64,000 nucleotides of DNA from an uncultured Spirochaetota bacterium (GCA_963768055.1 CAVYGN010000001.1:544001-608000); one strand, 5' to 3'. Shown: positions 5,986 through 64,000, numbered from the stretch's first letter. Numbers and translations are program-made. The notes: generated by a model from the sequence alone, not told the origin.

Positions 5986-5988
5986 AAA

Positions 5989-37762: not shown

Positions 37763-37772
37763 TATCTTCAAA

Positions 37773-37822: not shown

Positions 37823-37858
37823 AGATTTTAAGGGGATTATTATAATGATGGGCATAAG

Positions 37859-38856: not shown

Positions 38857-39347
38857 TAAAGGTATTGAATGAAGATTATTTAACAGATGTAATGACAATC
38901 ATTAAAGAAGTCATTATTCATATGAATGAACAAGGCATTGATCAATGGGATGAGGTTTATCCGAATATTGAAATTATCACCCAGGATTTAAAAGAAAAGT
39001 GCGCCTATGGATATTTTGATAACGATGAATTATCGGGTTATGTGGCTATAAACAAAACATATCCGCCACCATACGATAAATTCAAATGGAAAGTAAATAA
39101 TGGTGAATTTTTAGTTGTTCACAGATTAATGATAAAGCCTGATAAACAGGGAAAGGGAATTGCAAAGCAGCTTATGAGTTTTGCCGAGGAATTTATTAGG
39201 GGAAATGGATATAAAGCAATCAGATTAGATGCTTTTTCCCTGAATCCCGTAGCAATAAGTCTTTATGAACATATTGGATACAGTAAAGTTGGATCTGGCG
39301 CAAGCAGAAAAGGTGGTTTATGTTATTTTTATGAGAAAGTGTTATAG
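38853..39347 (+). CDS. GNAT-family N-acetyltransferase
   Basis: IDQWDEVYP, VHRLMIKPDKQGKGIA, RLDAF..NP.A..LYE..GY. Confidence 0.9.
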   Translation: MIKVLNEDYLTDVMTIIKEVIIHMNEQGIDQWDEVYPNIEIITQDLKEKCAYGYFDNDELSGYVAINKTYPPPYDKFKWKVNNGEFLVVHRLMIKPDKQGKGIAKQLMSFAEEFIRGNGYKAIRLDAFSLNPVAISLYEHIGYSKVGSGASRKGGLCYFYEKVL

Positions 39348-39360
39348 ATCCAATCTTTGA

Positions 39361-39399
39361 GCTCTTCCCACCTCTGCTCTGCCTGCTGTGAGAGTGTGG
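39361..39399 (+). repeat. Type-A intergenic hairpin element (divergent copy)
   Basis: GCTCTTCCCACCTCTGCTCTGCCTGCTGTGAGAGTGTGG, 13 nt after a stop codon. Confidence 0.8.
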
Positions 39400-39435
39400 T
39401 AATGACGAATATGACATATTTGTAAGAAAACTATT

Positions 39436-48483: not shown

Positions 48484-48593
48484 GGGCAACATCCTCAATG
48501 ATGAACCATTGCTTACCGAAGATTTCAATCGACTCGACATTTTATACAAGTAGTGCCCGGCAGCTAATTGGGGAATACTTCCTGATTCAAACC

Positions 48594-48636
48594 TTCACAT
48601 AACGTTCAAAATTCTATCACAATCGAATGTTATACT
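48594..48636 (+). promoter_or_regulatory. OmpR/PhoB-type tandem boxes + extended -10 upstream of the response regulator
   Basis: TTCAC/TTCAA/ATCAC at 48594, 48605, 48616; TGT-TATACT at 48628-48636. Confidence 0.6.
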
Positions 48637-48720
48637 TTAATACGTAGCAATGGAAATCGCATACACCTGTTTAAATATTGTTGGAGAGTTTGATAAAATA
48701 ATATAATTATCGAGGCGAAA

Positions 48721-49407
48721 ATGAGCATGTCAAAGAATAAAATTCTCATAGCCGATGATGAACAGAGAATGCTCAGGCTGATTTGCGATTATCTCAGAAA
48801 AGATGGATTTTTCCCTATTCCGGCAGAGAACGGAAAGATTGCCCTGAACCTGTATCTGGAAAATACAGATATAGACCTGGTCATACTGGATGTTATGATG
48901 CCGGAAATGGACGGCTGGTCCGTCTGCCGCGAGATCAGGAAATTAACGAAAGTTCCGATTATTATGCTAACGGCCAGGAGTGAGGAAGCTGACGAATTAT
49001 TCGGTTTTGAACTTGGGGCTGATGAATATGTAAAAAAACCGTTTAGCCCTGGCGTGCTGGTAGCCCGCGTAAGGGCATTACTGCGCAGAGCATCAATGGA
49101 CGAGTCGGAAAAAATTCTGGAATACGGCGGGCTTATACTCGATCCTGAAAGGCATTCGATTTTAGAAGACGGGAAGGTACTTGAACTCTCCCCGAAAGAA
49201 TATGATTTACTGTTCTATCTGGTAAAGAATGCGGGAGCGGCTTTAAGTAGGGCACGAATCTTATATTCCGTTTGGGGTAATGATTATTACGGCGACGGGA
49301 GGACAGTCGACACCCATATAAAATGCCTTAGAAAAAAATTAAAACAATCCGGCAGTAGAATAGAAACGATCCGTGGATTTGGATACCGTTTTCAGGATAA
49401 AGCATGA
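48721..49407 (+). CDS. OmpR/PhoB-family response regulator
   Basis: ILIADDE, LDVMMPEMDG, IMLTAR, KPFS, RTVDTHIK.LR.KL, TIRGFGYRF. Confidence 0.95.
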   Translation: MSMSKNKILIADDEQRMLRLICDYLRKDGFFPIPAENGKIALNLYLENTDIDLVILDVMMPEMDGWSVCREIRKLTKVPIIMLTARSEEADELFGFELGADEYVKKPFSPGVLVARVRALLRRASMDESEKILEYGGLILDPERHSILEDGKVLELSPKEYDLLFYLVKNAGAALSRARILYSVWGNDYYGDGRTVDTHIKCLRKKLKQSGSRIETIRGFGYRFQDKA

Positions 49408-50933
49408 AAATCAGGAACAAGCTGTTCATTGGGATTTCGATACTTGTCCTGCTTTTTATATCACTGGCTGTTTTCTTCAATCAAACCTTTTTATTATCAT
49501 TCTATATCCGTGAAACCCAAACGAAACTCATCGTAGACGCGAAAAACATTGATTCCCGATACCATGGAAATATCAAGGATGCCTTACCGGATTTACGGAC
49601 GATGGAATTGAATTCCGGAATCCATATAGAAATCATTGATAAGAAGCTTGAATTAAAATATATGTCGCAATTCCAGAAACATAATATAAATCTGGATCCT
49701 AAACAGAGTTTAAGGCCCGGTATGCCATTCCCTCCATTTAGAAAGGATTATTTACCTCAATTAAGGAATTCAGGGCCCGATATGCCAATCCATCCATTTA
49801 GAATGGAATTTTTAAATAAATTAAGGAATAATGCAAAGGGACATTATGCATTCCAGAATAATCCAGAGACTGATAAGTTTATTTCCTTTATTAATTGCGG
49901 ATATATATTAAATAACGGAGATATACTCATATTAAGCCGTCCTCTTGCGGAGTTAAAAGAAAGCGCTGAGGTGGCGAACCGTTTTTTAATATTTTCAGGA
50001 TTTGTTATATGTCTTATCGGGATTATAGCCGTATATGTAGTATCCAGAAGGTTTACCAGGCCGATTATTGAACTGCGGGATATGGCCCATGATATGGCTG
50101 AACTGAATTTCAGCCATAAGTTCATTGTCCATTCAAACGATGAAATAGCCGAACTTGGTATAAGCATCAATTCATTGTCAAGACAGCTCGACCATTCTAT
50201 TAACGAACTGAATCTTGCCAACATGAAACTTCGTGAGGATATTGACAGGGAAAGAAAGCTTGAAGTGATGAGGAGGGATTTTGTTTCAAGCGTATCTCAT
50301 GAATTGAAAACTCCAATCGCCTTAATAATGGGATATGCGGAGGGTTTGAAAGACGGAGTAGCAAAGAGAAAAGACCGCGATTATTATTGCAGCGTGATCA
50401 TGGACGAATCTAAAAAACTGGACCTCCTGCTCAAGGACTTGCTCGACCTTTCCCAGTTTGAGTCTGGCGTTTTCCGGTTATCGATAAAACAATTCGACCT
50501 TAAGGAAAAAATTGAAGAAATTCTGCAAAAATATACTCCCCTTATAAACGATAAAAAAATCAGATTGACGCTTGCTGCTCAAACCACTATGGTAAAGGCG
50601 GATCCTTCAAGGATAGAACAGGTCATCGTTAATTACTTGAATAATGCAATAGATCATTGTGATGGAGAGAGAAGGATCCATATACGGATTGAAAAATCCG
50701 GAGATTTCGCCGAATTTGCCCTGTTTAATTCCGGAAAATCTGTCCCGGAAGAAGCCCTGGAGAAGATCTGGCTGCGATTTTATAAAACGGATTCGTCCCG
50801 AAACCGTTCATTCGGCGGTACCGGGCTTGGTCTTGCTATCGTCAAGGCTATCCTCGAACTTCACAAAGCCCCTTTCGGAGTCCGGAATCTTCCGGATGGA
50901 GTGGAATTTTATTTTAGGCTGAAAATTTCATAG
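49404..50933 (+). CDS. HAMP-domain sensor histidine kinase
   Basis: Two transmembrane segments, HAMP, SHELKTP, NYLNNAI, GGTGLGLAIVK. Confidence 0.95.
   Translation: MKIRNKLFIGISILVLLFISLAVFFNQTFLLSFYIRETQTKLIVDAKNIDSRYHGNIKDALPDLRTMELNSGIHIEIIDKKLELKYMSQFQKHNINLDPKQSLRPGMPFPPFRKDYLPQLRNSGPDMPIHPFRMEFLNKLRNNAKGHYAFQNNPETDKFISFINCGYILNNGDILILSRPLAELKESAEVANRFLIFSGFVICLIGIIAVYVVSRRFTRPIIELRDMAHDMAELNFSHKFIVHSNDEIAELGISINSLSRQLDHSINELNLANMKLREDIDRERKLEVMRRDFVSSVSHELKTPIALIMGYAEGLKDGVAKRKDRDYYCSVIMDESKKLDLLLKDLLDLSQFESGVFRLSIKQFDLKEKIEEILQKYTPLINDKKIRLTLAAQTTMVKADPSRIEQVIVNYLNNAIDHCDGERRIHIRIEKSGDFAEFALFNSGKSVPEEALEKIWLRFYKTDSSRNRSFGGTGLGLAIVKAILELHKAPFGVRNLPDGVEFYFRLKIS
49714..49829 (+). repeat. 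In-frame 60-bp tandem duplication in the kinase sensor domain
   Basis: PGMPFPPFRKDYLPQLRN / PDMPIHPFRMEFLNKLRN. Confidence 0.75.
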
Positions 50934-50963
50934 ATTTCACTTATCATTCACTAATCGCTCACG
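50869..50963 (+). repeat. 95-bp repeat (kinase 3' end + TTCAC boxes), copy 1; copy 2 at 55793-55887
   Basis: Match at offset 4924 with a few substitutions. Confidence 0.9.
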
Positions 50964-51380
50964 TCAAAGACACAAGGAAAAGTCATAATACAAGCATGAA
51001 AAAAGTAATATTCATACTCCTTATAAACAGCATTGTGCTGTCGAATTTGTTAGAGTCTAACAGATTTAATGGAGCAGAGTAATATAAAATGGGGGGAAAA
51101 GGTGAAAGTTCTATTCGAAATATTAATGACATCTGTATTCTTTCTTGCCGGCACATGTTATGGAATGTCCGTGAAAGAGACTTATATCGATACAGGGATA
51201 CTTTTGGAGGGGAATGTAACTGATTGGATACTTATATATGGTACTTGCGCTCAAACAGGTAAATTATCATATATTTATGAGAATGATATTGACTGCCTTA
51301 CATTAATATTAGAATTACAGCTTGCGATTGATGACTGGTAGGCAGGAAGTTACAGATTACAAAAAGGCAGATATAGAATG

Positions 51381-51452
51381 CAGATACAGGAGCAGATTTA
51401 TGACTTAGGAGTAAACTTGATAACAGTGTTTCCTGAAACCTTCATGAACGGG
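51381..51452 (+). pseudogene. Remnant of a MacB-like permease, in frame upstream of the TonB-dependent receptor
   Basis: QIQEQIYDLGVNLITVFPETF vs EIKEQISSMGINLITVFPEAF at 57296-57367. Confidence 0.7.
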
Positions 51453-51491
51453 AATACAAAAGAAAACATTTTATTAAACAGAGGAATTTTT

Positions 51492-53822
51492 ATGATAAAT
51501 TTTAGGTTTTTTATTACATTTTTATTTATACCCGCATTCTTGTTTCCATATCAGATAAAAGGCAGGGTATATAGAAGTGATAACCGCGAGGGAATAGCAG
51601 GGGCTATAATAATTTTAAAAACAGGTACAAACATATTATTAAATTCACTAAGTGATAGCGATGGTTCTTATGACTTGATGAACCTTGAAAAAGGAATCTA
51701 TTTATTAGAAATTAAAGCGGCTGGTTTTTATTCAGAAACCAGATCTCTTTTTGCTGACAGAGATATTGTGATAAATTTATTTCTGGTTCCAAATGATCTC
51801 TCGCTTGGAGAAGTAGATGTAAAAGGTCAGAAAATGGAAGGAGTGGTATCGGAAAACACTATCGATAAAAATATGCGTCAAAAAGCTTCTGTTTCCAGCA
51901 CTTCTGATCCGCTTTCTGTAATAACTTCAATGCCAGGGGTTGAAACTCTTAACAACCCAGGTTCTGAAGACACAACTAAATTTTCAGTAAGAGGCGGTAA
52001 CGGCAACGAGAATATCGCAATGCTTGACGAAGCGCTAATTAAATATCCTTATCATCATTATATGAACGATTCAGTATTCATCGATGATGTGGTAAATACT
52101 TTATCGATTTATAAAGGTGTTGTCCCTGCCGAATATGGTCAGGAAATGTCTTCTTTATTGCAGGTTAATTCCGATGAAGGGGCGCCCGGCTTTCATGGAA
52201 AAGTCGATTTAGGCCTTTTAAACAGTTCCATATCGCTAAATGGAGCCACTGCAGATCAAAAGCTGAGCTGGATAGGAGGAATCAGAAGAACTCAATGGGA
52301 TTTGATTCTTCCATTATTTTCCCAAGACAGAAACTCTACCATACAGATTCCCTATTATCTGGACTCGCATGGAAGGGTATTATATAAGACAGCGGATGAT
52401 ATTTTATCATTTGTCTGGCTTTATTCAGAAGAACCATCCTCTTTCTCGAATCTTTCTGGTCAGGGTGGTAATAATAACGCTTCTGGAGTCATGAATTATT
52501 ATGAAACAGTTTTAAATCTGGATTGGAAACATATTTTTAATAAAGAATTTTTCATGGAACAATCAATTGGAACAACCTGGGCTTATCAGCTGCAGAATAT
52601 GCAATCGCCGAATTCAACAAATTACAATGAAAATGATGAATTTGGGTTACGATACAAATTAGCAGCGGACTATTCGCCAAACGATTTGATTAATTTTAAA
52701 ATCGGCACTGAAATTCAATATTACCCGAAGGAGTATATAACAAATTATCTTTATGCCAGTTACACCAATCAAATTAATGGTCAGCAGGAATGGAGTAATT
52801 TTTCCCAGAACGGTTATTCCGGTGAGTTAGGAGTATATTCCGTATTTATTGATAATGAAACTTCAATTTTTGATAGCGGGTTTTATATACTGGATGGCCT
52901 GAGATTGAATTACGCTGATTATATCGGGAAATATTCATTTGACCCCAGAGGAACTTTGGGATATAAATTGGCAGAAAATGACAAGGTATATATTTCCGCC
53001 GGATATTTATCGGAATTCCCAACTGATCCAGGAACGCTGGAATATCTTGATACTAATGCCAATCTGAAAATCCCGGGATGCTGGCATTATGTAATCGGAA
53101 CCGAGTTAAATTTTCTCGGTTCAATAGATATTACACTTGAAGGATATTATAAAGAATACAATTACTATATCAGTTATGAATCCAATGCTGTCGTTAGTTA
53201 TGATACTTCAGGACAGAACAAGCATGTGTATGGGATTGATTTCCTTCTTGAAAAAAAACCGGATTCATTTCCGATTTATGGTTGGATCAGTATCAGCGGG
53301 TTTCTTTCTTCCAGTTACCGTTATGTTGGGATTGATCCGAATATGCCCTACGATACTGCCGGCGGGGGTTTCGGCGGGATGGGTTCACTCACTGTCGCCG
53401 GGCAATCCGCACAGCCGCCGGTCGATCAATGGTATAATGACGATGCATCAATGCCTTACAGATTAGATATAACTGCTATCTGGGATATTAATAAAAACTG
53501 GACGCTGACAACTGAGTTCGATTATCAGGCTGGTTCATACTATACACCGATTACCAATGCCGAAAAAATAGGCTCTTACTATGAACCCCTCTATGGGACG
53601 TATAATTCTGCAAGATACCCGGACCAGCAATCGCTTAACATTAAGGTGGAATACAGGACAATTTTGTTTGACCTGCCTTTCGGGATTTATGCGGAATGTT
53701 ATAATGTTTATAATTACCGCGCTATTACCGGATATTCTTATTCAGCGGATTATTCATCTGAAAATCCTGTCTATTCCGCATTAGGCATTTACGGAACTTG
53801 CGGCTTATGGATGAAATGGTAA
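51492..53822 (+). CDS. TonB-dependent receptor with N-terminal carboxypeptidase-regulatory-like domain
   Basis: Signal peptide MINFRFF..; IKGRVY...GIAGAII; plug FSVRGG...EN; PAEYG; aromatic-rich barrel ending in W; next to exbBD-tonB. Confidence 0.85.
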   Translation: MINFRFFITFLFIPAFLFPYQIKGRVYRSDNREGIAGAIIILKTGTNILLNSLSDSDGSYDLMNLEKGIYLLEIKAAGFYSETRSLFADRDIVINLFLVPNDLSLGEVDVKGQKMEGVVSENTIDKNMRQKASVSSTSDPLSVITSMPGVETLNNPGSEDTTKFSVRGGNGNENIAMLDEALIKYPYHHYMNDSVFIDDVVNTLSIYKGVVPAEYGQEMSSLLQVNSDEGAPGFHGKVDLGLLNSSISLNGATADQKLSWIGGIRRTQWDLILPLFSQDRNSTIQIPYYLDSHGRVLYKTADDILSFVWLYSEEPSSFSNLSGQGGNNNASGVMNYYETVLNLDWKHIFNKEFFMEQSIGTTWAYQLQNMQSPNSTNYNENDEFGLRYKLAADYSPNDLINFKIGTEIQYYPKEYITNYLYASYTNQINGQQEWSNFSQNGYSGELGVYSVFIDNETSIFDSGFYILDGLRLNYADYIGKYSFDPRGTLGYKLAENDKVYISAGYLSEFPTDPGTLEYLDTNANLKIPGCWHYVIGTELNFLGSIDITLEGYYKEYNYYISYESNAVVSYDTSGQNKHVYGIDFLLEKKPDSFPIYGWISISGFLSSSYRYVGIDPNMPYDTAGGGFGGMGSLTVAGQSAQPPVDQWYNDDASMPYRLDITAIWDINKNWTLTTEFDYQAGSYYTPITNAEKIGSYYEPLYGTYNSARYPDQQSLNIKVEYRTILFDLPFGIYAECYNVYNYRAITGYSYSADYSSENPVYSALGIYGTCGLWMKW

Positions 53823-53860
53823 ATATTTCAAATATGTTTATAAAATGTTAGGAGGAAAAA

Positions 53861-54487
53861 ATGTTCGTCGGAAAATCAATCTGGGATATCCTTCAGATGG
53901 GCGGATTTACAATGACCGTTCTTCTGATCTGCTCGATAATATCTCTTTCATTCATACTTGAAAGGGTATTTCATCTCAGGAGCAAAACAAGGGTTAAAAG
54001 GCCTCCCTTTATGGCTAAAATCAAAAGTTATCTCGAAGGCAACAGCCTCCAGGGCACGTCTGCATACGCGGGAACCTTGATATCGCCTCTGGCCAGGGTT
54101 GTTCAGGCCGGGCTCCTTCTCAACGGAAAAGGCGATGAGAAAATAACAAACGCGATGGACAGGCAGATAAGCATTGAAATTAAAGAGCTTGAAAGATTTA
54201 CCGGCATCCTCGGTTCAATTGGAAGCACTGTAGTATATATCGGCCTGTTCGGTACGGTTATCGGCATTATAAGGGCATTCCAGGACATTGCTCTTTCAGC
54301 AGGCAGCGGGACAGGCATAGCCGGGGTTGTGGCCGGTATTGCAGAAGCCCTCATTACAACAGCCACAGGTATTCTTGTAGCGGTTCCGACAGTCATCGCC
54401 TATAACACTTTGATGAACAATATAGGCAATATCGCTACAGATATGGAGATCTGCGCTTCCGAGACCCTGGATTTATTAAGGAAATAA
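53861..54487 (+). CDS. exbB: MotA/TolQ/ExbB proton channel protein
   Basis: IGLFGTVIGIIRAF, GIAEALITTATGILVAVP. Confidence 0.9.
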   Translation: MFVGKSIWDILQMGGFTMTVLLICSIISLSFILERVFHLRSKTRVKRPPFMAKIKSYLEGNSLQGTSAYAGTLISPLARVVQAGLLLNGKGDEKITNAMDRQISIEIKELERFTGILGSIGSTVVYIGLFGTVIGIIRAFQDIALSAGSGTGIAGVVAGIAEALITTATGILVAVPTVIAYNTLMNNIGNIATDMEICASETLDLLRK

Positions 54488-54490
54488 ACT

Positions 54491-54913
54491 ATGATAAAAA
54501 AGAGATCGGAAAAAAGGAAATTGATGACCGATATAAATATTACGCCTTTTACCGACGTAGTGCTGGTTCTTTTGATCATATTTATTATCGCCACGCCCCT
54601 GATATACCAGGGGAAGATAAAGATCAACCTGCCGGAGACAAAGAGCACGAAGACCGAGGACAAGCCAATGAGGATGACTGTCCAGGTGACAGAACAGGGA
54701 TCTATATTTATTGACGACGTGGAATACAGCATGCCGGCCGATGCTGAAAAGATTAAAACGAAGATCCTGAATACAGTGGGAAACAGCGAAAATTCCGCAG
54801 TTGTCATAAACGGCGATAAAAACTGCAGGTACAGTACAATCATCGGCATAATAGATGCCATAAAGGAAATAGGTATAAAGAAGATCCTGCTCGGGACTGA
54901 AATTAAAAGATAG
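54491..54913 (+). CDS. exbD: ExbD/TolR biopolymer transport protein
   Basis: INITPFTDVVLVLLIIFII, INLP, INGDK. Confidence 0.9.
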   Translation: MIKKRSEKRKLMTDINITPFTDVVLVLLIIFIIATPLIYQGKIKINLPETKSTKTEDKPMRMTVQVTEQGSIFIDDVEYSMPADAEKIKTKILNTVGNSENSAVVINGDKNCRYSTIIGIIDAIKEIGIKKILLGTEIKR

Positions 54914-54926
54914 CCGGGGGAGAATT

Positions 54927-55493
54927 ATGAAAATGCTGCGTTTCGTAGGTATATCCGCCGTTCTTCACTTGCTTGTTCTGTTTGTGTTAATGTTAAAATT
55001 CCAGGCAGGTTTCATAATGACTAACGATACCTATGTCCAGCTTAACGATGAAAAACACTCGATAGATATGAAGACTCCCAAACCTTTTGTCATGGGCGAG
55101 GCGGCTAATAAAAAGATGAAGCCGGTTATCAACACGAACTTTCAGGAGCTTCAAAAAGAGGATAATGAAGATGCCGGCGGCGGCGGCCCATTGGATTTAA
55201 GCGGTTATGTCCCAAGTTATCAGGTCGAAGAACTCCCTATACCGCTATCTCCGATCAGTCCGAAATATCCCGAAGAGGCTCGAAGGACCGGCATCGAAGG
55301 CAAAGTACTTGTAATGCTGTATATCGATGAGCTTGGAAATGTAAAAAAAGTCGAAATCCAGAAATCCCCCAGCGATTTACTGTCGAAATCTGCTTTAGAA
55401 GCTGTATCGTCGACAAGGTTCAGACCGGCAAAAATTGGGGGAGCAGCCAGAGCGGTATGCATGCTTCTGACTCTGAAATTCCATCTGGAATAG
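54927..55493 (+). CDS. tonB: Energy transducer TonB
   Basis: N-terminal SAVLH transmembrane segment; PKYPEEARRTGIEGKV, FRPA. Confidence 0.9.
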   Translation: MKMLRFVGISAVLHLLVLFVLMLKFQAGFIMTNDTYVQLNDEKHSIDMKTPKPFVMGEAANKKMKPVINTNFQELQKEDNEDAGGGGPLDLSGYVPSYQVEELPIPLSPISPKYPEEARRTGIEGKVLVMLYIDELGNVKKVEIQKSPSDLLSKSALEAVSSTRFRPAKIGGAARAVCMLLTLKFHLE

Positions 55494-55526
55494 ATCAAAA
55501 ATCAATCCCGATATATCGAAATTGAT

Positions 55527-55793
55527 TCAGGCTTGCAATTCGAAAGACTCTTCGCTGATTTTTTCGAATTCCCCGTTTGTAAAGTCTTCGACAGTAAGGA
55601 TTTTCTTCCGGCCCCCAGGAGCGATCTTTTTAGTATGCCTCTCGAGGCGGGCCGTCCAGTTAATGCTGAACTTTTCAATCATTATAAAAGTATCGTCGTC
55701 GGTAAAATTCCCCTCGCCGGTTATATAGCAGGCAAAATTATCATACCATTCGAGCCTGAATTTTTTTATTTTTTCATCGAAGAAGACAATCCC
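55527..55793 (-). pseudogene. 5'-truncated gene fragment (DUF1579-like), not in the ORF track
   Basis: Open frame GIVFFDEKIKKFRLEWYDNFACYITGEGNF...ISEESFELQA*, cut off at the 55793 repeat. Confidence 0.5.
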
Positions 55794-55913
55794 CCCTTTC
55801 GGAGTCCGGAATCTTTCGGACGGAGTGGAGTTTTATTTCAGGCTGAAAATTTCATAGATTTCACTTATCATTCACAAATCGTTCACGATACTATCACAAA
55901 TATGCGTTATAGT
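55793..55913 (+). promoter_or_regulatory. Duplicated kinase tail + four TTCAC/ATCAC boxes and -10 TATAGT
   Basis: Boxes at 55860, 55871, 55882, 55893; TATAGT at 55908-55913, 6 nt before the ATG at 55920. Confidence 0.7.
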
Positions 55914-55919
55914 GCCGTT

Positions 55920-57113
55920 ATGAAAAAAATAATATCAATAATTTTTATTATTATCGCGGCCGGTTCTGTCGGCGGGTATATTCTTTTCAATTCAGGCAGG
56001 GCTAAAAATCCATATGAGATTGCGGAAATCGAAAGGGGAGACCTCTCCGAAAATATTTCCTGCACGGGAAACCTTAAACTGAGGAATTCCGTGGTTGTTA
56101 ATTTCAAGATATCCGGTACAGTTGCTGAGGTGATGGCCGATTTCAATCAAAGAATCAGGAAAGGACAGCCGCTGGCTTCCCTGGATAAAACCCTCCTGAA
56201 ACTGGCTGTTCAGACGGCGGAGGCGGGCCTTCATTCAGCACAGAACCAGATTGTCCAGGCTAAAAAAAACTATGAGGATACGAAATTCCTTTTCGATAAA
56301 AATTTCAAATCACAGTCAGACCTTGATACAGCGAAGATAAACCTTGATACGGCACAGATTAATTTGCAGACAAGCCAGATCAGCCTGGATAGCGCGAAAG
56401 CGAACCTTATGTTTGCGGTGATCTATTCGCCCATTGACGGCATCGTCATCGAACGGAATATCGAGGCAGGACAGTCAGTAGCAAGCAGCGAGTTTAACAC
56501 TGTCCTTATGACAAATTTTTTTCTTGCGAGCGACACAAGTAAAATACAGATTTTTGCTACAGTAGACGAAAACGATATTTCAAAAATCAAAAAAGGGCAG
56601 AAGGTCGTTTTTACCGTCCAGAGTTACCAGGATAAAACTTTTAAAGGCATTGTAAGCCAGATCCGCATGAAGCCCATTGTTTCGGATAATGTTGTTGTAT
56701 ATACCATTGTTATGGACGCTGATAATCAGGATAATTTGCTTATTCCCGGTATGACTGCAACATTGAACATTGAGACGGATAGCCGCAAGAACATCCTTAT
56801 GGTTCCTAATACAGCTCTTAAGTTCCAGCCGCCTATAGAAATATTTAGATTGCCACAAATAACCGGCGGGCAGGGAATGGCAGATCGTGATTTAGTCTGG
56901 ACTTATAATGAAAAAACAGGAAAAATCAGGTCTGTTTTTGTAAAAACCGGTCTGACCGACGGTCAGATGACAGAGATCTACTCTGAAGAATTAAAAGATG
57001 GCATGAAAGTCCTGACGGGGCTTTCAGTAGTTGTTAATAATACTAAAATCGGGTCTAAGAGCATATTGAATTCAGTCAGCGGTCCGGGCGGCGGACCTCC
57101 TCCAGGAATGTAG
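55920..57113 (+). CDS. Efflux periplasmic adaptor (MacA/HlyD-like)
   Basis: N-terminal transmembrane segment, ISGTVAEV.ADFN..IRKGQPLA, IYSPIDGIVI, VDENDI, PGMTA. Confidence 0.9.
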   Translation: MKKIISIIFIIIAAGSVGGYILFNSGRAKNPYEIAEIERGDLSENISCTGNLKLRNSVVVNFKISGTVAEVMADFNQRIRKGQPLASLDKTLLKLAVQTAEAGLHSAQNQIVQAKKNYEDTKFLFDKNFKSQSDLDTAKINLDTAQINLQTSQISLDSAKANLMFAVIYSPIDGIVIERNIEAGQSVASSEFNTVLMTNFFLASDTSKIQIFATVDENDISKIKKGQKVVFTVQSYQDKTFKGIVSQIRMKPIVSDNVVVYTIVMDADNQDNLLIPGMTATLNIETDSRKNILMVPNTALKFQPPIEIFRLPQITGGQGMADRDLVWTYNEKTGKIRSVFVKTGLTDGQMTEIYSEELKDGMKVLTGLSVVVNNTKIGSKSILNSVSGPGGGPPPGM

Positions 57114-57154
57114 GTAAAGGGAAATCTTGTTGACAATGAGATTGAAAGGAAAAT

Positions 57155-58375
57155 ATGGAATTATTAAATTTTTTTAGCACAGCAGTCCGGTCGATTTTAA
57201 GGAATAAGATGCGCAGCTTTCTCACAATGTTAGGCATAATTATAGGCATCTCATCTGTGATAGTGATGGTTTCTATAGGTGCCGGTGCACAACAGGAGAT
57301 AAAGGAGCAAATTTCAAGCATGGGTATAAACCTGATAACAGTATTCCCTGAAGCCTTCAGGAAGGGCGGAGTCAATCAGGGGGGAGGATCAGGTTCACAC
57401 CTGAAGTACAGCGATGTAAAAAAATTAAAAAAACAGGCCAGGCTTCTTTCGGGAGTATCACCGCTGATCCGGGCCGATGTCCAAGTGATTGGCGGCAAGG
57501 CTAACTGGAGTACGGTCATTTATGGGGTTTCCCCGGATTATCTGGCTATTCGCAGTATGAGTGTGTCTATGGGAAGTGTGTTGGCCGATAACGATTTGAA
57601 TGTCAATGCAAAGGTTTGTATTCTCGGCCAAACAGTCGCGACAAATTTATTCGGCAATACAAGTCCGGTTGGAAAAACGGTTCGGATAGGGCAGGTCCCG
57701 TTCCGGGTCATTGGAGTTTTTAGGCCAAAGGGATTTTCCGGCAGCGGGCAGGACCAGGATGATCTTGTTGTCGCACCTTATACAACAGTTCAGTACCGTC
57801 TGAGCCGTTTCCCTTTTCTCCAAATGATACTCTGTTCGAGTATATCCGGCGATAAAATGGAAGCTGCGCAGGCTGAAATAAGGTCTATTCTCCGCGAATC
57901 GCTTAAGATCCCCATAAGTTCTGATGACAGCTTCACTATACGTAGCCAAACAGAGGTCATATCAACGGCCACCCGGACTACAGGGGTTCTTGCAGTTTTT
58001 CTTGCCTCCATCGCGGGAATCTCACTACTTGTAGGCGGAATAGGCATCATGAATATTATGCTGGTTTCGGTAACAGAACGTACAAAGGAAATTGGGATAA
58101 GGCTTGCAGTTGGGGCCAGAAAAAAAGATATTCTCCTGCAGTTTCTTGTGGAAGCGGTGGTACTATGCCTGACAGGCGGTATTATAGGCATAGGGCTGGG
58201 TATAATAATTTCATTGATGGTCCGGGTATATATAGGATGGAATGTTGTCCTCCAGGCACATATAGTGATTCTGTCTTTCGCATTTTCATTCTTCGTGGGT
58301 ATCTTTTTCGGATTTTATCCAGCCAGGCGGGCATCAGCCTTAAATCCTATAGATGCATTGAGATATGAACCTTAA
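57155..58375 (+). CDS. MacB/FtsX-like ABC transporter permease (no ATPase domain)
   Basis: RSFLTMLGIIIG, GGIGIMNIMLVSVTERTKEIGIR, YPARRAS.LNPIDALRYE. Confidence 0.93.
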   Translation: MELLNFFSTAVRSILRNKMRSFLTMLGIIIGISSVIVMVSIGAGAQQEIKEQISSMGINLITVFPEAFRKGGVNQGGGSGSHLKYSDVKKLKKQARLLSGVSPLIRADVQVIGGKANWSTVIYGVSPDYLAIRSMSVSMGSVLADNDLNVNAKVCILGQTVATNLFGNTSPVGKTVRIGQVPFRVIGVFRPKGFSGSGQDQDDLVVAPYTTVQYRLSRFPFLQMILCSSISGDKMEAAQAEIRSILRESLKIPISSDDSFTIRSQTEVISTATRTTGVLAVFLASIAGISLLVGGIGIMNIMLVSVTERTKEIGIRLAVGARKKDILLQFLVEAVVLCLTGGIIGIGLGIIISLMVRVYIGWNVVLQAHIVILSFAFSFFVGIFFGFYPARRASALNPIDALRYEP

Positions 58376-58506
58376 ATTATTATTACTCCAAGATTTTAGT
58401 AAGCTTAACTATATGCAAGCTACCCTTAACATTTTTAGTGTAATACCTGGCAATGAGTGGATTATGCCTTGCTGAAATTTAAGCCTTTTATAATAAGGAG
58501 ACATCT

Positions 58507-58752
58507 ATGAGGATTTTAATTGTGGAAGATGAAAGGGACACACAGGAAGATTTTTCAATTTCCCTGAAGCCAACAGGTTATGAGATTGTTGAAACCGATA
58601 ACCCGAAAATAGCCCTGGCTTTATATATTAAATAAGGCTTTGAGCTGGTTATTTTAGACATTAGTGTGCAAGATATGAGGGGAATCAAATTACTGTCTGA
58701 ACTGCATGAATTAAAGCGGGAAAAACCGGATAAGCTATTCGATAATGCTTAA
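58507..58752 (+). pseudogene. Response-regulator receiver domain pseudogene
   Basis: AAGGAG RBS; MRILIVEDE...ALALYIK*GFELVILDISVQDMRGIKLL; internal TAA at 58633. Confidence 0.75.
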
Positions 58753-59329
58753 TAATAATGAAGGAGTTGACAAATGAGTTCGAGGAAAACGATCGGAGTA
58801 AGTATTAGTAAAAGTTACTTTATCGCCTATATTGAATCGGATGGCATTCATAAAATAATGACATACCCCGATAATAAAAATGGTATTAATAGTTTTTTGG
58901 ATGAACTGGATGACAATACGGTTATCGGGATAGAAAGACGCGGCCGGTTCGGCGCTTTTATTAAATCGATCAAGCATCTGATAAAAGAATATATATTGCT
59001 TTGTCATGAAGATTTTATTAGTTTTATCAGCCTTACAGACAAAGAAATTAACGAATAGGAGAAGGAGAAATGAGGAATTATGTTTTAATTTTAATCGCGA
59101 TGTTTACAATTAATCCGCTTTTTACTAAGCCGGTTTATTCAGAAGACAAAGACATTAAACTTGAAGATCATCAATCAAGCCTTAATGTGGATTTGATAAC
59201 TGTTCTTCAAAACCGTAAATCGACACGGGGGTTTACCGATAAGGAAATATCATTGAAAGATCTGTCCACAATCCTTTGGGCAGCAAATGGGATCAATCGT
59301 TATGATGGAAAAAGAACTGCTCCTTCACT
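58716..59329 (+). repeat. 614-bp direct repeat, copy 2 of 2416-3029
   Basis: Near-identical; ends 3 nt before the type-A element. Confidence 0.95.
58774..59058 (+). CDS. Second copy of the IS110-N-terminus-like 94-aa protein
   Basis: Differs from 2474-2758 at 4 residues. Confidence 0.45.
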   Translation: MSSRKTIGVSISKSYFIAYIESDGIHKIMTYPDNKNGINSFLDELDDNTVIGIERRGRFGAFIKSIKHLIKEYILLCHEDFISFISLTDKEINE

Positions 59330-59363
59330 AGGGCTCTTCCTCCCTCTGCTTTGCCTGCTATGA
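59070..59363 (+). pseudogene. 3'-truncated nitroreductase duplicate
   Basis: Matches the 2770 gene up to RTAPSL, then reads into the type-A repeat (GLFLPLLCLL*). Confidence 0.9.
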
Positions 59364-59373
59364 GGGATGGGGG
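59333..59373 (+). repeat. Type-A intergenic hairpin element
   Basis: GCTCTTCCTCCCTCTGCTTTGCCTGCTATGAGGGATGGGGG. Confidence 0.9.
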
Positions 59374-59398
59374 CGAGGATTTAGAAAAAAGAGGTTAT

Positions 59399-60550
59399 AT
59401 GAAAAGAATAATGATTTTGTTTATTTCAGGGGTTTTGAGTTTAATAACTTTCGAGCAATTGATGTCCGAAGATTTCATTTTAATTAAAGCGAATTCATTT
59501 AAAGGAAGCGCATACGACATAGGATTTAAAGAGGGTAAAGAAGTTATAAAAAATGAACCATTCTTTAAACAAGTTTTAAAAGCCAGCGTATTTACAAAAG
59601 CAACAGAAAGCAATTTTAATGAGGTTTCCAGACTGCTGAAAGAATTCGATGAAGATATTTTAGCTGAAATGAAAGGATTTTCTGATGCTTCTGATATTCC
59701 TTTTGAGGATATTGTGGTTAAATTAAGCGGATGGGGTATTACTAAGCCTGCAATACCTCATGGGTGCACACAAATAGCTATTTTACCAAATAAGACGTTT
59801 AACCATCATTTATTAGTTGGAAGAAATTATGATTATTCAGCCGATAAAAATTTAACAGATTTTAGCCTGGTTTTACTATACCCAGATACCTTTAAGTCTT
59901 CCATCGGAACTTCTCAATTTATTTTTGGGCGAATTGAGGGAATGAATAAGGATGGCTTATATGCAGGAATGTCATTTGCTCATGGCATAGGCAGAAATGA
60001 GAATGGATTTTTCTTTCCAATTATTATTAGAATGATTCTTGATAAATGCAAAGATACTAAAGAAGCTCTTGTGCTCATTAAAAAGATTCCTCATTCCTGT
60101 GCCTATAATTATCTAATTGCAGATAAAAATAATGCAGTTGCGGTTGAGGTAAGCCCCCCTAAAATTGCAATCAGATATCCTGAAAATAGTCTAATCGTTG
60201 TTGTAAATCATTATATCAAAGATGAAATGAAAACAGAGCAAAAATGGTTGATGCCCAATTCACAGAATAGATATAAACTTGCGATATCAAAACTAAACAA
60301 GGTAATTAATCTGGATGATTTAAAAATATTTTTATCAAGTCCTATTCCTAAAGGAGTATGTCAAAATTATTATAAAGATTATCTTGGCACTCTTTGGTCT
60401 GCTGTATTTGATTTGACTGATAACAAGGTCTATTATTCTTTTGGATCACCATCCTTAAATAATTATAATATAATTGATTTTAAAAATGGTGAAATATTAA
60501 ACAAAACAATTAAAGGAATTTTACCTGAGAATGAGCCACTTACAAATTAA
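59399..60550 (+). CDS. C45-family (Ntn-hydrolase) autoproteolytic acyltransferase/hydrolase
   Basis: GCTQIA (Cys nucleophile), GRNYDY, EGMNKDGL, YNYLIAD, TLWSAVFDL; signal-like N-terminus; GAGG RBS. Confidence 0.85.
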   Translation: MKRIMILFISGVLSLITFEQLMSEDFILIKANSFKGSAYDIGFKEGKEVIKNEPFFKQVLKASVFTKATESNFNEVSRLLKEFDEDILAEMKGFSDASDIPFEDIVVKLSGWGITKPAIPHGCTQIAILPNKTFNHHLLVGRNYDYSADKNLTDFSLVLLYPDTFKSSIGTSQFIFGRIEGMNKDGLYAGMSFAHGIGRNENGFFFPIIIRMILDKCKDTKEALVLIKKIPHSCAYNYLIADKNNAVAVEVSPPKIAIRYPENSLIVVVNHYIKDEMKTEQKWLMPNSQNRYKLAISKLNKVINLDDLKIFLSSPIPKGVCQNYYKDYLGTLWSAVFDLTDNKVYYSFGSPSLNNYNIIDFKNGEILNKTIKGILPENEPLTN

Positions 60551-60565
60551 TTTTCTTGTGGCATA

Positions 60566-60604
60566 GCTCTTCACCCTCTACTTTGCCTGCTATGAGGGAT
60601 GGAG
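60566..60604 (+). repeat. Type-A intergenic hairpin element
   Basis: GCTCTTCACCCTCTACTTTGCCTGCTATGAGGGATGGAG. Confidence 0.9.
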
Positions 60605-60652
60605 AAGAAAAGAGATTATTGAAATATAGAGTTATTTTATGGAGGGAATACC

Positions 60653-60985
60653 ATGTCTGAATTTCCAGATATCATTAAAGAACTACCCAATGCCGATATC
60701 CCGATAGACGGCTTATACTCCTATTTATTTCAAGGTGAAAACAAGCAAATTGTCTTTATGAAATTTGAAAAGGATGCTTTTGTTCCAGAGCATAAACATG
60801 AGGCTCAATGGGGCATTGTCTTAGAAGGTGAAACAATATTAGAATTTGAAGACAAAAAATTACTTTTAAAAAAAAGTGATGAATATTATATTCCAAAAGG
60901 TAAATTGCATAGTGCAAGGATAAAAGCAGGATATAAAGATATTACATTATTCAATCAGAATGATAGATATAAAAAGAAAAAGTAA
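60653..60985 (+). CDS. Cupin-domain protein
   Basis: VPEHKHEAQWGIVLEG, YYIPKGKLHSA. Confidence 0.9.
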   Translation: MSEFPDIIKELPNADIPIDGLYSYLFQGENKQIVFMKFEKDAFVPEHKHEAQWGIVLEGETILEFEDKKLLLKKSDEYYIPKGKLHSARIKAGYKDITLFNQNDRYKKKK

Positions 60986-61001
60986 GCTTCTTCTTTATCT
61001 G

Positions 61002-61091
61002 CCTTCCTTTTCCAGCCTGCCCTCCCATTGTTCAGCATTGCCAGACAAATGAATTTTTTAATAAAAGCGCCGGGAGGGGATAGAATAAGGG
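61002..61091 (+). repeat. Type-B intergenic element with TTAATA-N17-TAGAAT
   Basis: CCTTCCTTTTCCAGCCTGCCCTCCCATTGTTCAGCATTGCCAGACAAATGAATTTTTTAATAAAAGCGCCGGGAGGGGATAGAATAAGGG. Confidence 0.9.
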
Positions 61092-61112
61092 AATTACTGT
61101 AAGAAGGATAAA

Positions 61113-61463
61113 ATGAAAGATTTTCCTGATTTTATGAAGAATCCGAAAAATAAGATTAAACAAAGCTCTCAATTTACAAAAGACATTGAAGGCTTTGTTT
61201 TTGATGGCAAAGATGGTTCTCAAATGGCATTCTGGACTTCCTATGAAGATAGAGAATCGAAAGAGCACTGTCATAATTTCGATGAATATATGGTATGTAT
61301 TTATGGGCAATATAAAGTGAAAATGAATGGTGAAATTATAACCTTGAATCCTGGTGATGAATTATTTATCCCAAAAGGAACATTACAGAGCGGGGTATGT
61401 ATTAAAGGAACAAGGACTATTCATGCATTTGGTGCGAAAAGGGCTGAAAGGGAAGGAGAATAA
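61113..61463 (+). CDS. Cupin-domain protein
   Basis: EHCHNFDEYMVCIYG, LNPGDELFIPKGT. Confidence 0.9.
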   Translation: MKDFPDFMKNPKNKIKQSSQFTKDIEGFVFDGKDGSQMAFWTSYEDRESKEHCHNFDEYMVCIYGQYKVKMNGEIITLNPGDELFIPKGTLQSGVCIKGTRTIHAFGAKRAEREGE

Positions 61464-61474
61464 TTTGTTTTAAA

Positions 61475-61511
61475 GCTCTTCCCCCTCTGCTTTGCCTATG
61501 AGGGATGGGGA
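61475..61511 (+). repeat. Type-A intergenic hairpin element
   Basis: GCTCTTCCCCCTCTGCTTTGCCTATGAGGGATGGGGA. Confidence 0.9.
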
Positions 61512-61539
61512 ATAAGATTTCCGGATGAGGTTATTTATA

Positions 61540-61935
61540 ATGAATGCTTTTATTAATTGTGAAAGAATAGATGATTTGTTTGTCGAAAGACTAATAAATA
61601 ATTTAAAATTAGAAGGATTTATGGTATCAACATCGCCAAAAAATCCCATTGATGGTGAGGATATCAGATGGAATAATTGGTATAACTTTGGTATTGATGA
61701 GGCTTTACAAAATATAGATGTTTTCATCTCAATAATTACAGATTCATGGTCATCATCAACTTGGATGGCTATAGAGTGTGATACAGCAGAAAAATATTTT
61801 TTACAAAATAGTATTAAGAATATGTATTATATAGACTTACGAACCTCTAAATATATGCCAAAAGGGATGGAACAATATTTAAAAACGGAATTACCTAAAA
61901 ATTTTAATGAGATATTAAAAATTATCAAGGCATAA
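61540..61935 (+). CDS. Stand-alone TIR-like domain protein
   Basis: AFIN...DDLFVERL..NL..EG; IDEALQNIDVFISIIT..WSSSTWMAIE (S.W...E); alternative start at 61525. Confidence 0.6.
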   Translation: MNAFINCERIDDLFVERLINNLKLEGFMVSTSPKNPIDGEDIRWNNWYNFGIDEALQNIDVFISIITDSWSSSTWMAIECDTAEKYFLQNSIKNMYYIDLRTSKYMPKGMEQYLKTELPKNFNEILKIIKA

Positions 61936-61950
61936 TTTCATTTAATATTT

Positions 61951-62023
61951 CCCCTCCCTTTTCCAGCCTGCCATTCTCCATTGAATTTTTGATAAATCTG
62001 TGGTGAGGGGATAGAATAAGGGG
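61951..62023 (+). repeat. Type-B intergenic element with TTGATA-N17-TAGAAT
   Basis: CCCTTTTCCAGCCTGCCATTCTCCATTGAATTTTTGATAAATCTGTGGTGAGGGGATAGAATAAGGGG. Confidence 0.9.
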
Positions 62024-62090
62024 TAGTTAAGGTATAGTGAATTTATTGAGTAAAATCCCTTCAATCAATAAAAAAAATGAAGGTATATGA

Positions 62091-62771
62091 ATGGAAAAAT
62101 ATTTATCTGAAAAATATCTTAAAAATTTAATTCCGTCATGTTGCAAGATTGGATTTGCAAGTATTAATGATTATAATGAAATTGAGATAAGCTCATTAAC
62201 AAGTTTTTTGCCTGGAACTAAAACTATTATTGTCCTTTTCCATCATATTCAAAACTCATTGGAATGGTTATGGTATCCCTTTGAGAATGAAAGGGGTGAA
62301 AAAACATGCGGTGCGGACCAACATAGTCAGATTGTTCTCAATAAACTGAAGAATTATTTACAAAAAGAAGGGTATAATATTTCAGTATTACCTTATCCTG
62401 ATATATGCGGTGTAATGTTCAAGACAATTGCAACAAAAACATGTTTAGGAGAATTGGGAGAGAACTTTTTATTTATGAATAATGAATGGGGGCCTTGGAT
62501 TCATCTTCGGGTACTATTAACAAATGCTGAATTTTCATTTGAGCGCATTGAATTAATAAAGGCTTGCAATCATTGCGGTAATTGCCGTAAAGTATGCCCG
62601 GCTGATGCGATAAAGTCAAACTCATTCGATGGCATAAAATGCAGAGAAAGTATGCATAAAAGATCCGAAGAACTTGGTAAAAAACCATTTGTTTTTGAAT
62701 GTGAAATTTGCTTGCGTTCTTGTCCTATTGGAACTATTCCAGAAGAAGTAATTATTGATTATAAGAGATAA
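62091..62771 (+). CDS. Epoxyqueuosine-reductase/reductive-dehalogenase-like 4Fe-4S protein
   Basis: LGELGEN.L.MN.EWGPW..L..LLTN; CNHCGNCRKVCP; CEICLRSCP. Confidence 0.8.
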   Translation: MEKYLSEKYLKNLIPSCCKIGFASINDYNEIEISSLTSFLPGTKTIIVLFHHIQNSLEWLWYPFENERGEKTCGADQHSQIVLNKLKNYLQKEGYNISVLPYPDICGVMFKTIATKTCLGELGENFLFMNNEWGPWIHLRVLLTNAEFSFERIELIKACNHCGNCRKVCPADAIKSNSFDGIKCRESMHKRSEELGKKPFVFECEICLRSCPIGTIPEEVIIDYKR

Positions 62772-62796
62772 TATTGTTATTTATGATAGTTCGTTT

Positions 62797-62888
62797 CTTT
62801 CGCTCCTTTGCTTTGCCTGCCTTCCCCCTTTTTCAGCATTGCCAGACAAATGAAATTTTGATAAAAGTGCCAAGAGAGGATAGAATAA
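62797..62888 (+). repeat. Hybrid A/B intergenic element with TTGATA-N17-TAGAAT
   Basis: Type-A-like left arm CTCCTTTGCTTTGCCTGC joined to type-B right arm CAGCATTGCCAGACAAATGAAATTTTGATAAAAGTGCCAAGAGAGGATAGAATAA. Confidence 0.85.
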
Positions 62889-62956
62889 TAATGGGCAAGC
62901 CTTATATTGAGTTTAGTAAAAAGCTAGCAAGAAAATAATAAAGTAGGAGATTGGAT

Positions 62957-63643
62957 ATGCAAGGAAAAATAAAAACAAATGGAATATGTGCATATTGCAA
63001 AACCGAGATTCCTAAAAACGCTCATGCTATATTAAGCCACATTTCTAACTGTAAAAGCAAAGCCATATCAAAAAATGAAAGTCATATTAATTACATGATT
63101 TTATTGCTTGAAGGAAAATATAATCCTGATTACTGGATTGTTATAAAAGCCAAGCCTGAAATAACAATGAAAAAAGTTGATAAGTTTTTAAGAGACATTT
63201 GGGTTGAATGTTGTGATCATATGAGTTTGTTTTCCGATAAACATTCTAAAATTGGCATGACATGGAAATTAGATGAGGTATTTGAGAAAGGGTATAAAGT
63301 TGATTATATATATGATTTTGGTTCATCGACAGAAATTTCATTATCATTATTAGAAGAATCAGGGGATAAAGATGAAAAAGATATTCAGATACTTATGCGA
63401 AATAAAGAAATTGATTATAAATGTTCATATTGTAATAATAAGGCTGTAGAAATTTGTCCTTTTTGTTTATATGAAGATAAAGGTTTCTTATGTAAATCCT
63501 GTATTAAAGAGCATAAATGTATAAAAAATGAAGGAGAAGATATCCTTTTACCTATTGTAAATTCTCCAAGATCTGGAGAATGTGGATATACAGGTTATTT
63601 GGATAAAGATGTTAAAAAGTATTTTCCAAGGGAAATAATTTAG
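62957..63643 (+). CDS. pRiA4b ORF-3-like protein with Cys/His zinc-binding motifs
   Basis: CAYC...HISNC, LRDIWVECCDHMS.F, YIYDFGSST, NSPRSGECGY. Confidence 0.75.
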   Translation: MQGKIKTNGICAYCKTEIPKNAHAILSHISNCKSKAISKNESHINYMILLLEGKYNPDYWIVIKAKPEITMKKVDKFLRDIWVECCDHMSLFSDKHSKIGMTWKLDEVFEKGYKVDYIYDFGSSTEISLSLLEESGDKDEKDIQILMRNKEIDYKCSYCNNKAVEICPFCLYEDKGFLCKSCIKEHKCIKNEGEDILLPIVNSPRSGECGYTGYLDKDVKKYFPREII

Positions 63644-63681
63644 AAGAACATTGAAATCTTCAATTAGTAATAGGTTTATTC

Positions 63682-63756
63682 TTCCATTTCCAGCTTTTAT
63701 GCTAACCATTTTGGAAAATTTGCCAGACAAATATGGACGGGATTAGAATAATTGGG
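63682..63756 (+). repeat. Degenerate type-B element
   Basis: TTCCATTTCCAGC...TGCCAGACAAAT...TGGACGGGATTAGAATAATTGGG. Confidence 0.6.
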
Positions 63757-63770
63757 ATCTGAGTTTTTAA

Positions 63771-63870
63771 ATGGATTTAAAATTATAAATATATGATTTT
63801 GACGGAACTATAAATAAATGAGATTCCGCGATTGATTTATGGTTTTTTATACTATGGAAAGAGCCTTAAT
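63771..63870 (+). pseudogene. HAD-family hydrolase pseudogene fragment
   Basis: MDLKL*IYDFDGTINK*DSAIDLWFFILWKEP*: DxDGT motif interrupted by stops. Confidence 0.55.
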
Positions 63871-64000
63871 TAGGACAGACGAACAAGAACTATCAAACTG
63901 TATAAAAAATAGAATTTAATTTTTAAGTTGATATTGTGGTGGATTATGCTGGAAACCATGAATGAATTGGGAAAAAAAAGGGTGCCATTTCTATTCATTA

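Follow-up and report, generated by a model that had tools for sequence, protein, structure and literature searches.

The window analysed here is a 64,000-nt stretch (C1:544001-608000, from GCA_963768055.1) of the genome of an uncultured Spirochaetota bacterium (G000; 3.69 Mb in two contigs, C1 and C2), and our subject is a family of short repeats that lie between single genes near its right end. We found that these elements are modular, that their long form carries a promoter motif with conserved hexamers, that they cluster in arrays within which they share one orientation, and that the genes they separate are reordered between the three species, all of one Brevinematales genus, to which the family is restricted. 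Our preferred reading, which we hold tentatively, is that the elements are junction repeats of self-promoted gene cassettes that would be exchanged by recombination at one part of the repeat, the end module. With about the same reserve, we suggest that a trans-acting protein encoded elsewhere would recognise the near-invariant CTGCTTTGCC core of this module.

Seven elements in seven consecutive gaps

Direct reading of the sequence, a repeat listing and nhmmer agreed on seven elements at window 59-64 kb, one in each of seven consecutive gaps, all on the + strand and each followed by a co-oriented open reading frame (ORF), in agreement with a preliminary description of this DNA, made from the sequence alone. 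They are listed below in window coordinates together with their genes, which were called with Pfam cut-offs, and with two further features of the window.

59070-59363, +, truncated nitroreductase gene running into element A1 (Pfam Nitroreductase, E 7.6e-5, N-terminal part only)
59327-59382, +, element A1, an end module with a short right part, marking where this array segment begins on the left (nhmmer E 4e-15)
59399-60550, +, C45/AAT-type hydrolase cassette gene (PF03417, E 1e-38; ORF GC 0.31)
60559-60613, +, element A2 (nhmmer E 9.5e-16; in the A alignment)
60653-60985, +, cupin cassette gene, 110 aa (PF07883)
60992-61097, +, element B1, end module plus promoter motif TTAATA-N17-TAGAAT at 61058-61086 (nhmmer E 5.8e-29; promoter scan 9/12)
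61113-61463, +, second cupin cassette gene, 116 aa (PF07883, E 1.8e-5, under the cut-off)
61469-61519, +, element A3, with a 3-nt deletion after TTTGCC (nhmmer E 4e-14)
61525-61935, +, weak TIR-like cassette gene (PF13676, E 1.4e-4, under the cut-off)
61944-62027, +, element B2, promoter motif TTGATA-N17-TAGAAT at 61989-62017, spacer a hybrid of two spacer classes
62091-62771, +, 4Fe-4S protein cassette gene, 226 aa (Fer4 families near or under the cut-off)
62796-62897, +, element B3, two tandem end modules plus promoter motif TTGATA-N17-TAGAAT at 62858-62886 (nhmmer E 3.3e-25)
62951-63643, +, Cys-rich cassette gene with a weak pRiA4b ORF-3-like match (PF07929, E 0.016, under the cut-off)
63674-63760, +, element B4, degenerate, TTGCCA-N18-TAGAAT at 63720-63749 (nhmmer E 6.4e-13)
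37769-39411, +, separate mini-array: B promoter motif (37769-37829), methyltransferase, pyrophosphatase-like and GNAT genes, A element (39360-39411)
11276-11329, +, solo B-type promoter module with a class-2 spacer, preceding a gene outside any array (nhmmer E 1.2e-6)

The gene labels of that description held in part: the C45 hydrolase and one cupin score over the cut-off, the second cupin falls just under it, the Fer4 match is near or under it, and the TIR and pRiA4b assignments are weak, while a 'HAD remnant' amounts to only a few codons. Its claim that every gap holds a repeat is right for these seven gaps; in the wider array many gaps contain an element, but not all. The 22-nt core of the type A elements has two exact copies in the window versus none in 100 shuffles, and the GC content of the region is 0.30-0.31, compared with 0.41 for the genome.

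The left edge of the array at A1 is secondary. The 614-bp piece before it (window 58716-59329, C1:602716-603329) is a 98% copy of window 2416-3029 and ends exactly where A1 begins, so that the nitroreductase gene was truncated at A1 by the duplication; its intact copy starts near window 2771. A larger segmental duplication, which includes HlyD/MacB-type exporter genes left of the array, relates window 48563-58715 (C1:592563-602715) to C1:650688-655861 at 90-98% identity.

Anatomy of the element

We built profile hidden Markov models from 20 type A and 32 type B copies. The long form (B) consists of a pyrimidine-rich end module (…CTCTGCTTTGCC) and then a sigma-70-type promoter motif. The end module is 25 nt long, has the form GCTCTTCC-n-CCCTCTGCTTTGCC, and is often present twice in tandem upstream of the promoter motif. 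In the 32 aligned B copies the invariant columns are exactly TTGATA and TAGAAT, 17 nt apart, and an exact TTGATA-N17-TAGAAT is found in half of all elements in the genome (33/66). The spacers are themselves conserved and G-rich, and fall into two classes, AAGYGCCRRGAGGGGA and AATCTGWGGGACRGGAT. In addition to what the preliminary description noted, the alignment identifies the right half of B as a promoter motif. A generic promoter scan gave 10/12 for each of B2, B3 and B4, and 9/12 for B1, but its overall yield was at background in this AT-rich region (28 found versus 27 expected), and the evidence for a promoter is therefore conservation, not the scan. The long form thus probably carries an active promoter, in which case the cassettes would bring their own expression signal.

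The preliminary description distinguished types A and B. A aligns as B without 44 columns, in which B has its second end module and its -35 box, and a copy at C1:677042, which keeps GGGATTAGAATAA, is intermediate between the two; A and B are therefore one family, of which A is the promoter-less form. To judge from the alignment, the short form arose from the long one by deletion. The type A consensus quoted in that description agrees with our alignment of 20 copies, where the invariant and near-invariant columns cluster in CCTCTGCTTTGCC and the 5' part shifts by indels. Conservation reaches a sharp peak over 13 nt within the end module.

The end module is also found with other right-hand neighbours. 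At C1:702997 and C1:725837 it is directly followed by a third, unrelated module, promoter-like TTGAAT-N17-CATAAT, and at C2:1857240 by the ribosome-binding site of the next gene. The TTGAAT-N17-CATAAT module lies within ~100 nt common to the two C1 junctions. The end module is C-rich and G-poor (C 0.26 and G 0.12, versus 0.16 and 0.18 in the background), and a generic scan of the 5-kb region found no intrinsic terminator where 2.5 were expected. On its base composition and the lack of intrinsic terminators, the end module may insulate transcription units.

Census in the genome and its relatives

An nhmmer census at E<=1e-3 detected 66 elements in G000, of which 57 lie in three one-directional, low-GC arrays:

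C1:603-745 kb, main array, 48 copies, all +, extending beyond the window's end
C2:1854-1860 kb, second array, 7 copies, all +
C2:1153-1156 kb, third array, 2 copies, both -
Elsewhere, 9 copies, 7 + and 2 -

The main array spans ~142 kb. ORFs were taken from a naive caller that makes some spurious antisense calls, and with this proviso a co-oriented ORF lies downstream of 59/66 elements, upstream of 57/66 and on both sides of 50/66. In the median case an element starts 12 nt after the upstream stop codon and ends 17 nt before the next naive start. The GC content of array ORFs is ~0.19-0.36, against 0.41 for the genome, and the cargo includes GNATs, methyltransferases, glyoxalases, DinB, cupins, DJ-1, MBL fold proteins and ParE/Phd. 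One ParE/Phd toxin-antitoxin pair within the array is encoded on the - strand (C1:672093-672714); opposite-strand toxin-antitoxin pairs are frequent in chromosomal integron arrays. ParE, PhdYeFM and acetyltransferases are among the commonest functions of integron cassettes (PMC7370490). Resistance-like cargo is found at C1:709190-710379 and C1:726966-730990 and comprises an SMR transporter, MBL-fold proteins, an APH-type kinase and a 286-aa protein of transpeptidase/beta-lactamase fold, with functions assigned by family match only.

The main array is broken by six copies of a 1.6-kb IS3-type insertion sequence (IS), by IS21 copies, and by a block of 57 kb (610-667 kb) that contains genes of prophage-like and restriction-modification types as well as further insertions. 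The IS3-type element (a 160-aa HTH_Tnp_1 ORF and a 342-aa rve ORF) has ~16 copies in G000, most of them 99.9-100% identical (e.g. C1:663880-665475); six are in or beside the main array, one of these inside a B promoter spacer (C1:713189-714784). Public DNA with this stretch was found at contig level in seven runs from two studies (peat and freshwater sediment metagenomes), with no RNA run listed beside them, and contigs from four of the seven runs bridge two IS insertions (L021, 10757 to 12355 and 15494 to 16781). The IS3-type copy at C1:610761-612354 is missing from a variant in the public contigs.

We extended the search to relatives, among them four congeners in the same Brevinematales genus (G001-G004). 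The A pattern, with <=3 mismatches, was present in 2 of 401 genomes sampled across the phylum (11 copies in G000 and one in G003), and, of 35 genomes from the order, three had matches to the B model at E<=1e-4 (43 copies in G000, 13 in G003 and 4 in G001); G002 and G004 gave only weak matches, at E<=0.01. Across 185,579 species genomes the A pattern had no match and a looser B pattern matched one contig of an uncultured Brevinematales metagenome-assembled genome, the same contig as C24 of G001. The exact B pattern matched two metagenome contigs, and plasmid and phage collections contained no match to the patterns. The element is confined to three species of one genus. A full-text literature search (supplements not covered) yielded integron papers and a note on promoter reuse (PMC3575422), but no account of a non-attC, promoter-bearing junction repeat.

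Cassettes are reordered between species

G003 and G001 hold several mini-arrays of two to four elements. We compared 85 naive ORFs from the element-bearing regions of these two genomes with G000. For nineteen the best tblastn match fell within an array of G000, in scrambled order and in different arrays, with identities of 56-95% in 17 cases; 39 had no G000 match. A single G003 array holds orthologues of G000 genes located at C1:711k, 682k, 730k, 727k and 748k and at C2:1858k. Genes of the window take part in this: the 110-aa cupin has an orthologue with 91% aa identity in a G003 array, where its downstream neighbour is another gene, and the Fe-S gene has one with 95% aa identity, behind another upstream cassette. 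Between cupin and Fe-S gene, G003 has one different cassette where G000 has the second cupin and the TIR-like gene. Among congeners, then, the same cassette genes appear in new order and beside many unshared genes.

In order to locate the junctions, related cassettes with differing downstream modules were aligned. In 5/5 such pairs the similarity runs through the end module and ends <=5 nt after TTTGCC; three further pairs, with the same module type on both sides, are uninformative. The five pairs are:

Fe-S gene, G003 versus G000
MBL gene, G001 versus G000
ORF122, G001 versus G000
Methyltransferase, C1:715.8k versus C2:1855.8k
Cupin, C1:610.0k versus C1:726.9k

This pattern would fit homologous as well as site-specific recombination. 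At G003:C1:1335742-1335796 (L049 5742-5796) a B promoter module replaces the native upstream region, as seen by comparison with G000 C1:554290-554400; the gene is 95% identical between the two genomes, and homology resumes ~25 nt ahead of its ATG. A solo cassette lies between core-like genes in a metagenome contig (L050). Public contigs also showed joints at elements (3357 to 9625, 3371 to 9617 and 6267 to 14729), whose sides are <=32 nt and which we read as cross-matches between repeat copies; the contigs of four public runs, in which element joints had sides of this size, contained no clean cassette excision joint.

Tests for integrons and known repeats

Integron attC sites form an imperfect hairpin in single-stranded DNA, with R and L boxes, extrahelical bases and RYYYAAC/GTTRRRY ends. 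None of the seven gaps contains a RYYYAAC...GTTRRRY pair, and the array has only 2 in 78 kb, a density of 0.026/kb versus 0.04/kb in controls. Folding of the seven elements with DNA parameters, on both strands, gave no excess single-stranded structure (z -2.04 to +1.78), and the 20 A copies have a consensus fold of only 5 pairs, at -0.59 kcal/mol. The most conserved part is the would-be loop (CTGCTTTGCC), whereas in attC sites the reverse holds. The best match to the integron integrase model (IntI; TIGR02249, cut-off 265 bits) in G000, a genome 94.75% complete, is a Xer-like 296-aa protein at 87.8 bits, and in the four congeners nothing exceeds the cut-off either (best 127.3 bits). The identification as attC thus failed on motif, fold and integrase, in agreement with the initial view that the repeats are not attC and that the window lacks IntI. 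In G004, which does not carry the repeat, tyrosine recombinases of 353-365 aa at G004:C2:46723-47529 and G004:C6:427159-427956 match the IntI model in two pieces (122-127 and 92-95 bits), under the cut-off and far above the scores of the other congeners.

Other known repeats were tested as well. An Rfam scan of window 50000-64000 gave a single chance-level match (E 3.9 at 53077) outside the elements, which are thus without a match in that database. G000 contains no RAYT gene (Y1 HUH, PF01797), and the elements have no stable palindrome and, in folds and alignments, no inverted termini. A CCCTC/GAGGG hairpin of RNA or single-stranded DNA, for which a compensatory TCCTC/GAGGA was noticed by eye in two copies, was discarded on the negligible consensus fold. 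A tRNA-derived attachment site was likewise rejected: the end module shares at most 10-nt chance matches with any of the genome's 48 tRNA genes, none of which is located at the main array. Two traits of known systems are present, namely the co-oriented cassette array with each unit ending in a repeat, as in integrons, and 32 near-identical copies with invariant -35 and -10 boxes upstream of unrelated ORFs, as in mobile promoters.

Search for a recombinase

Neither the main array nor those of the relatives have a recombinase gene next to them. In G000, 12 matches to tyrosine recombinases exceed the Pfam cut-off, none of them beside the main array. A low-GC pair of 353 and 359 aa (C2:1841533-1843911) and a third tyrosine recombinase of 233 aa are encoded near tRNA-Ala, 6-13 kb upstream of the C2 array, and look like an ordinary island integrase set. 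A 360-aa tyrosine recombinase family is shared by G000 and G003 and was not found in G001. Within the array, a 226-aa ORF (C1:689949-690629) matches only the N-terminal 190 residues of this family, at 28% identity, and abuts a 5'-truncated cassette, so that we regard it as a recombinase remnant (C1:690030-690629). G000 has three resolvases, each encoded on C2 and the closest of them ~8 kb away from the small array there, and Y1 and IS110 genes are absent from this genome. None of these candidates (resolvases, 360-aa family, 233-aa family) is linked to an array or convincing as its enzyme. In G004, a locus (G004:C3:262000-277300, L052/L053) in which five to six full or partial 233-aa-type tyrosine recombinases alternate with repeats of a 153-aa ORF segment resembles a variable locus of the inversion or shufflon type and is unrelated to our element.

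Discussion

In the cassette model that we tentatively favour, a unit would consist of an optional promoter module, one ORF (sometimes two or three) and the 25-nt end module, with the promoter (TTGATA, 17 nt, TAGAAT) ~20-50 nt before the ribosome-binding site and successive units following one another in the same direction. Wherever a cassette came to lie, its promoter module would permit expression. The end module would be the place where units join and exchange, and recombination between end modules would cut a unit out and put it back, presumably via circular intermediates. A core recognised by a protein is suggested by the 13-nt conservation peak, by the finding of the end module next to at least four right-hand sequences that are unrelated to one another, and by the solo cassette in L050. 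A stronger version of this model, possible in our opinion but doubtful, is that of a capture system separate from integrons, in which self-promoted single-gene cassettes moved at the 13-nt double-stranded core (CTGCTTTGCCTGC), by a recombinase encoded away from the arrays, would have built the 142-kb super-array. The preliminary description had already proposed gene capture with the recombinase elsewhere; the array, its order and the non-attC repeats support this proposal, but a recombinase linked to the arrays was found neither in G000 nor in its relatives.

Several further observations, besides that failed search and the ordinary look of the recombinases near tRNA-Ala, weigh against cassette exchange at the end module. 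The core lacks clear dyad symmetry in both the alignment and the consensus fold. The 5' boundaries are not constant: some fall in the promoter spacer, some at the -35 box and some immediately behind the end module. The end module is missing altogether from one copy of a methyltransferase cassette, two neighbouring cassette genes of G003 are not separated by any element, and the promoter module moves alone. The junction rule itself is weak evidence, because the element types share only the end module and similarity would end there anyway.

Some of these points are accommodated by the main competing explanation, which we consider a substantial but lesser possibility: that the element is a dispersed mobile promoter or insulator module, between whose copies homologous recombination or gene conversion shuffles cassettes incidentally, with no dedicated recombinase or defined crossover site. 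Hybrid elements (B2, whose spacer mixes the two classes, and C1:677042, which mixes A and B), the variable 5' boundaries, the replaced upstream region of the 95%-identical G003 gene and the want of a linked recombinase are all as it would predict, and near-identical promoters upstream of unrelated genes have been described before (PMC3575422). This explanation must contend, however, with the size of the common end module, only ~25 nt. Such a length is at the lower limit of homology for RecA exchange. Nor does it account for the peak of conservation in the 13-nt core, where an even distribution across the element would be expected, for the acquisition of both modules by unrelated, newly acquired genes, or for the solo cassette between core-like genes.

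That the element is a non-autonomous transposable element, of the kind of miniature inverted-repeat transposable elements (MITEs), repetitive extragenic palindromes (REPs) or BOX, inserted into existing gaps between genes that never moved as cassettes, seems improbable. It is short, modular and intergenic, its B copies differ in number by species (43, 13 and 4), and a few solo copies lie outside arrays, but terminal inverted repeats, a stable hairpin (with the z-scores and consensus energy given above) and Y1/RAYT or IS110 genes in G000 are all missing. Insertion into gaps would also fit poorly with the gathering of 57/66 copies in three arrays of one orientation each, and with orthologous cassettes that keep their end module while their neighbours differ.

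Still less likely, the elements could be nothing but a shared regulatory signal, a promoter with an operator or terminator, of a co-regulated island, without any role in gene movement. The invariant hexamers and conserved G-rich spacers are what such a signal would have, and the C-rich, G-poor end module could act in Rho-type termination where the intrinsic terminators expected in the 5-kb region are absent; yet identity reaches well past the functional boxes, the short form is conserved although it has no -35 box, order is scrambled between species, and 39/85 naive ORFs of the relatives have no G000 match. Finally, a diverged cluster of attC sites lacking an integron-integrase (CALIN), with the elements as unusual attC sites, retains a negligible chance: architecture and cargo match sedentary chromosomal integrons and Treponema species carry integrons (PMC3607928), but no gap has the attC ends, whose density in the array is below that of controls, neither strand folds in excess, conservation sits in the would-be loop rather than in paired boxes, and no IntI exceeds the cut-off in G000 or its four congeners.

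The array can nevertheless be placed beside several known systems. Like sedentary chromosomal integrons and CALINs, it is long and one-directional, with mostly single-gene cassettes, a conserved repeat at their 3' end, low GC content, accumulated ISs, acetyltransferase and ParE/Phd cargo, and a content that varies between related species. It differs from them in a repeat without R and L boxes, AAC/GTT triplets or folded form, in the lack of IntI, and in a promoter motif at about half of the junctions. Integron cassettes rely on a single platform promoter; with a promoter of their own at these junctions, the expression of the cassettes studied here would not depend on one. In spirochaetes, integrons are known from Treponema, and their attC sites do have AAC/GTT triplets (PMC3607928). 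With the putative mobile promoters described in the abstract of PMC3575422, our element shares a near-identical promoter before many non-homologous genes, swapped in at a sister-species orthologue; it differs from that description in that its promoter belongs to a composite junction element, where it is coupled to a 3' end module, and in its arrangement in arrays.

BOX, Correia/NEMIS, REP/REPIN and MITE families resemble it in being short, modular, intergenic and lineage-specific, and some families of these types carry promoters; unlike them, our element has no inverted termini, hairpin or RAYT, is co-oriented with genes and is clustered in arrays. Tandem accretion at tRNA sites and phage 'morons' also leave repeated junction scars between independently acquired units, each with its own promoter. 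In contrast to tRNA-site accretion, the end module is unrelated to the tRNA genes, the main array has none, and its units are single small genes.

Taken together, the array mirrors the layout and the kind of cargo of an integron, fails the defining integron tests (IntI, attC ends and attC fold), and adds a portable promoter motif to many cassettes. Under the homology-driven explanation, it would clearly illustrate how the reuse of a promoter can shape an accessory region of 140 kb in nature. The sequences defined here are available for reporter and recombination assays. Among platforms that store up single-gene cassettes, integrons alone are well understood, to our knowledge. If the cassettes of this genus move at the end module, they would represent a second bacterial way to bank and reshuffle accessory genes, one that would be invisible to integron-based surveys, since these look for IntI and attC.

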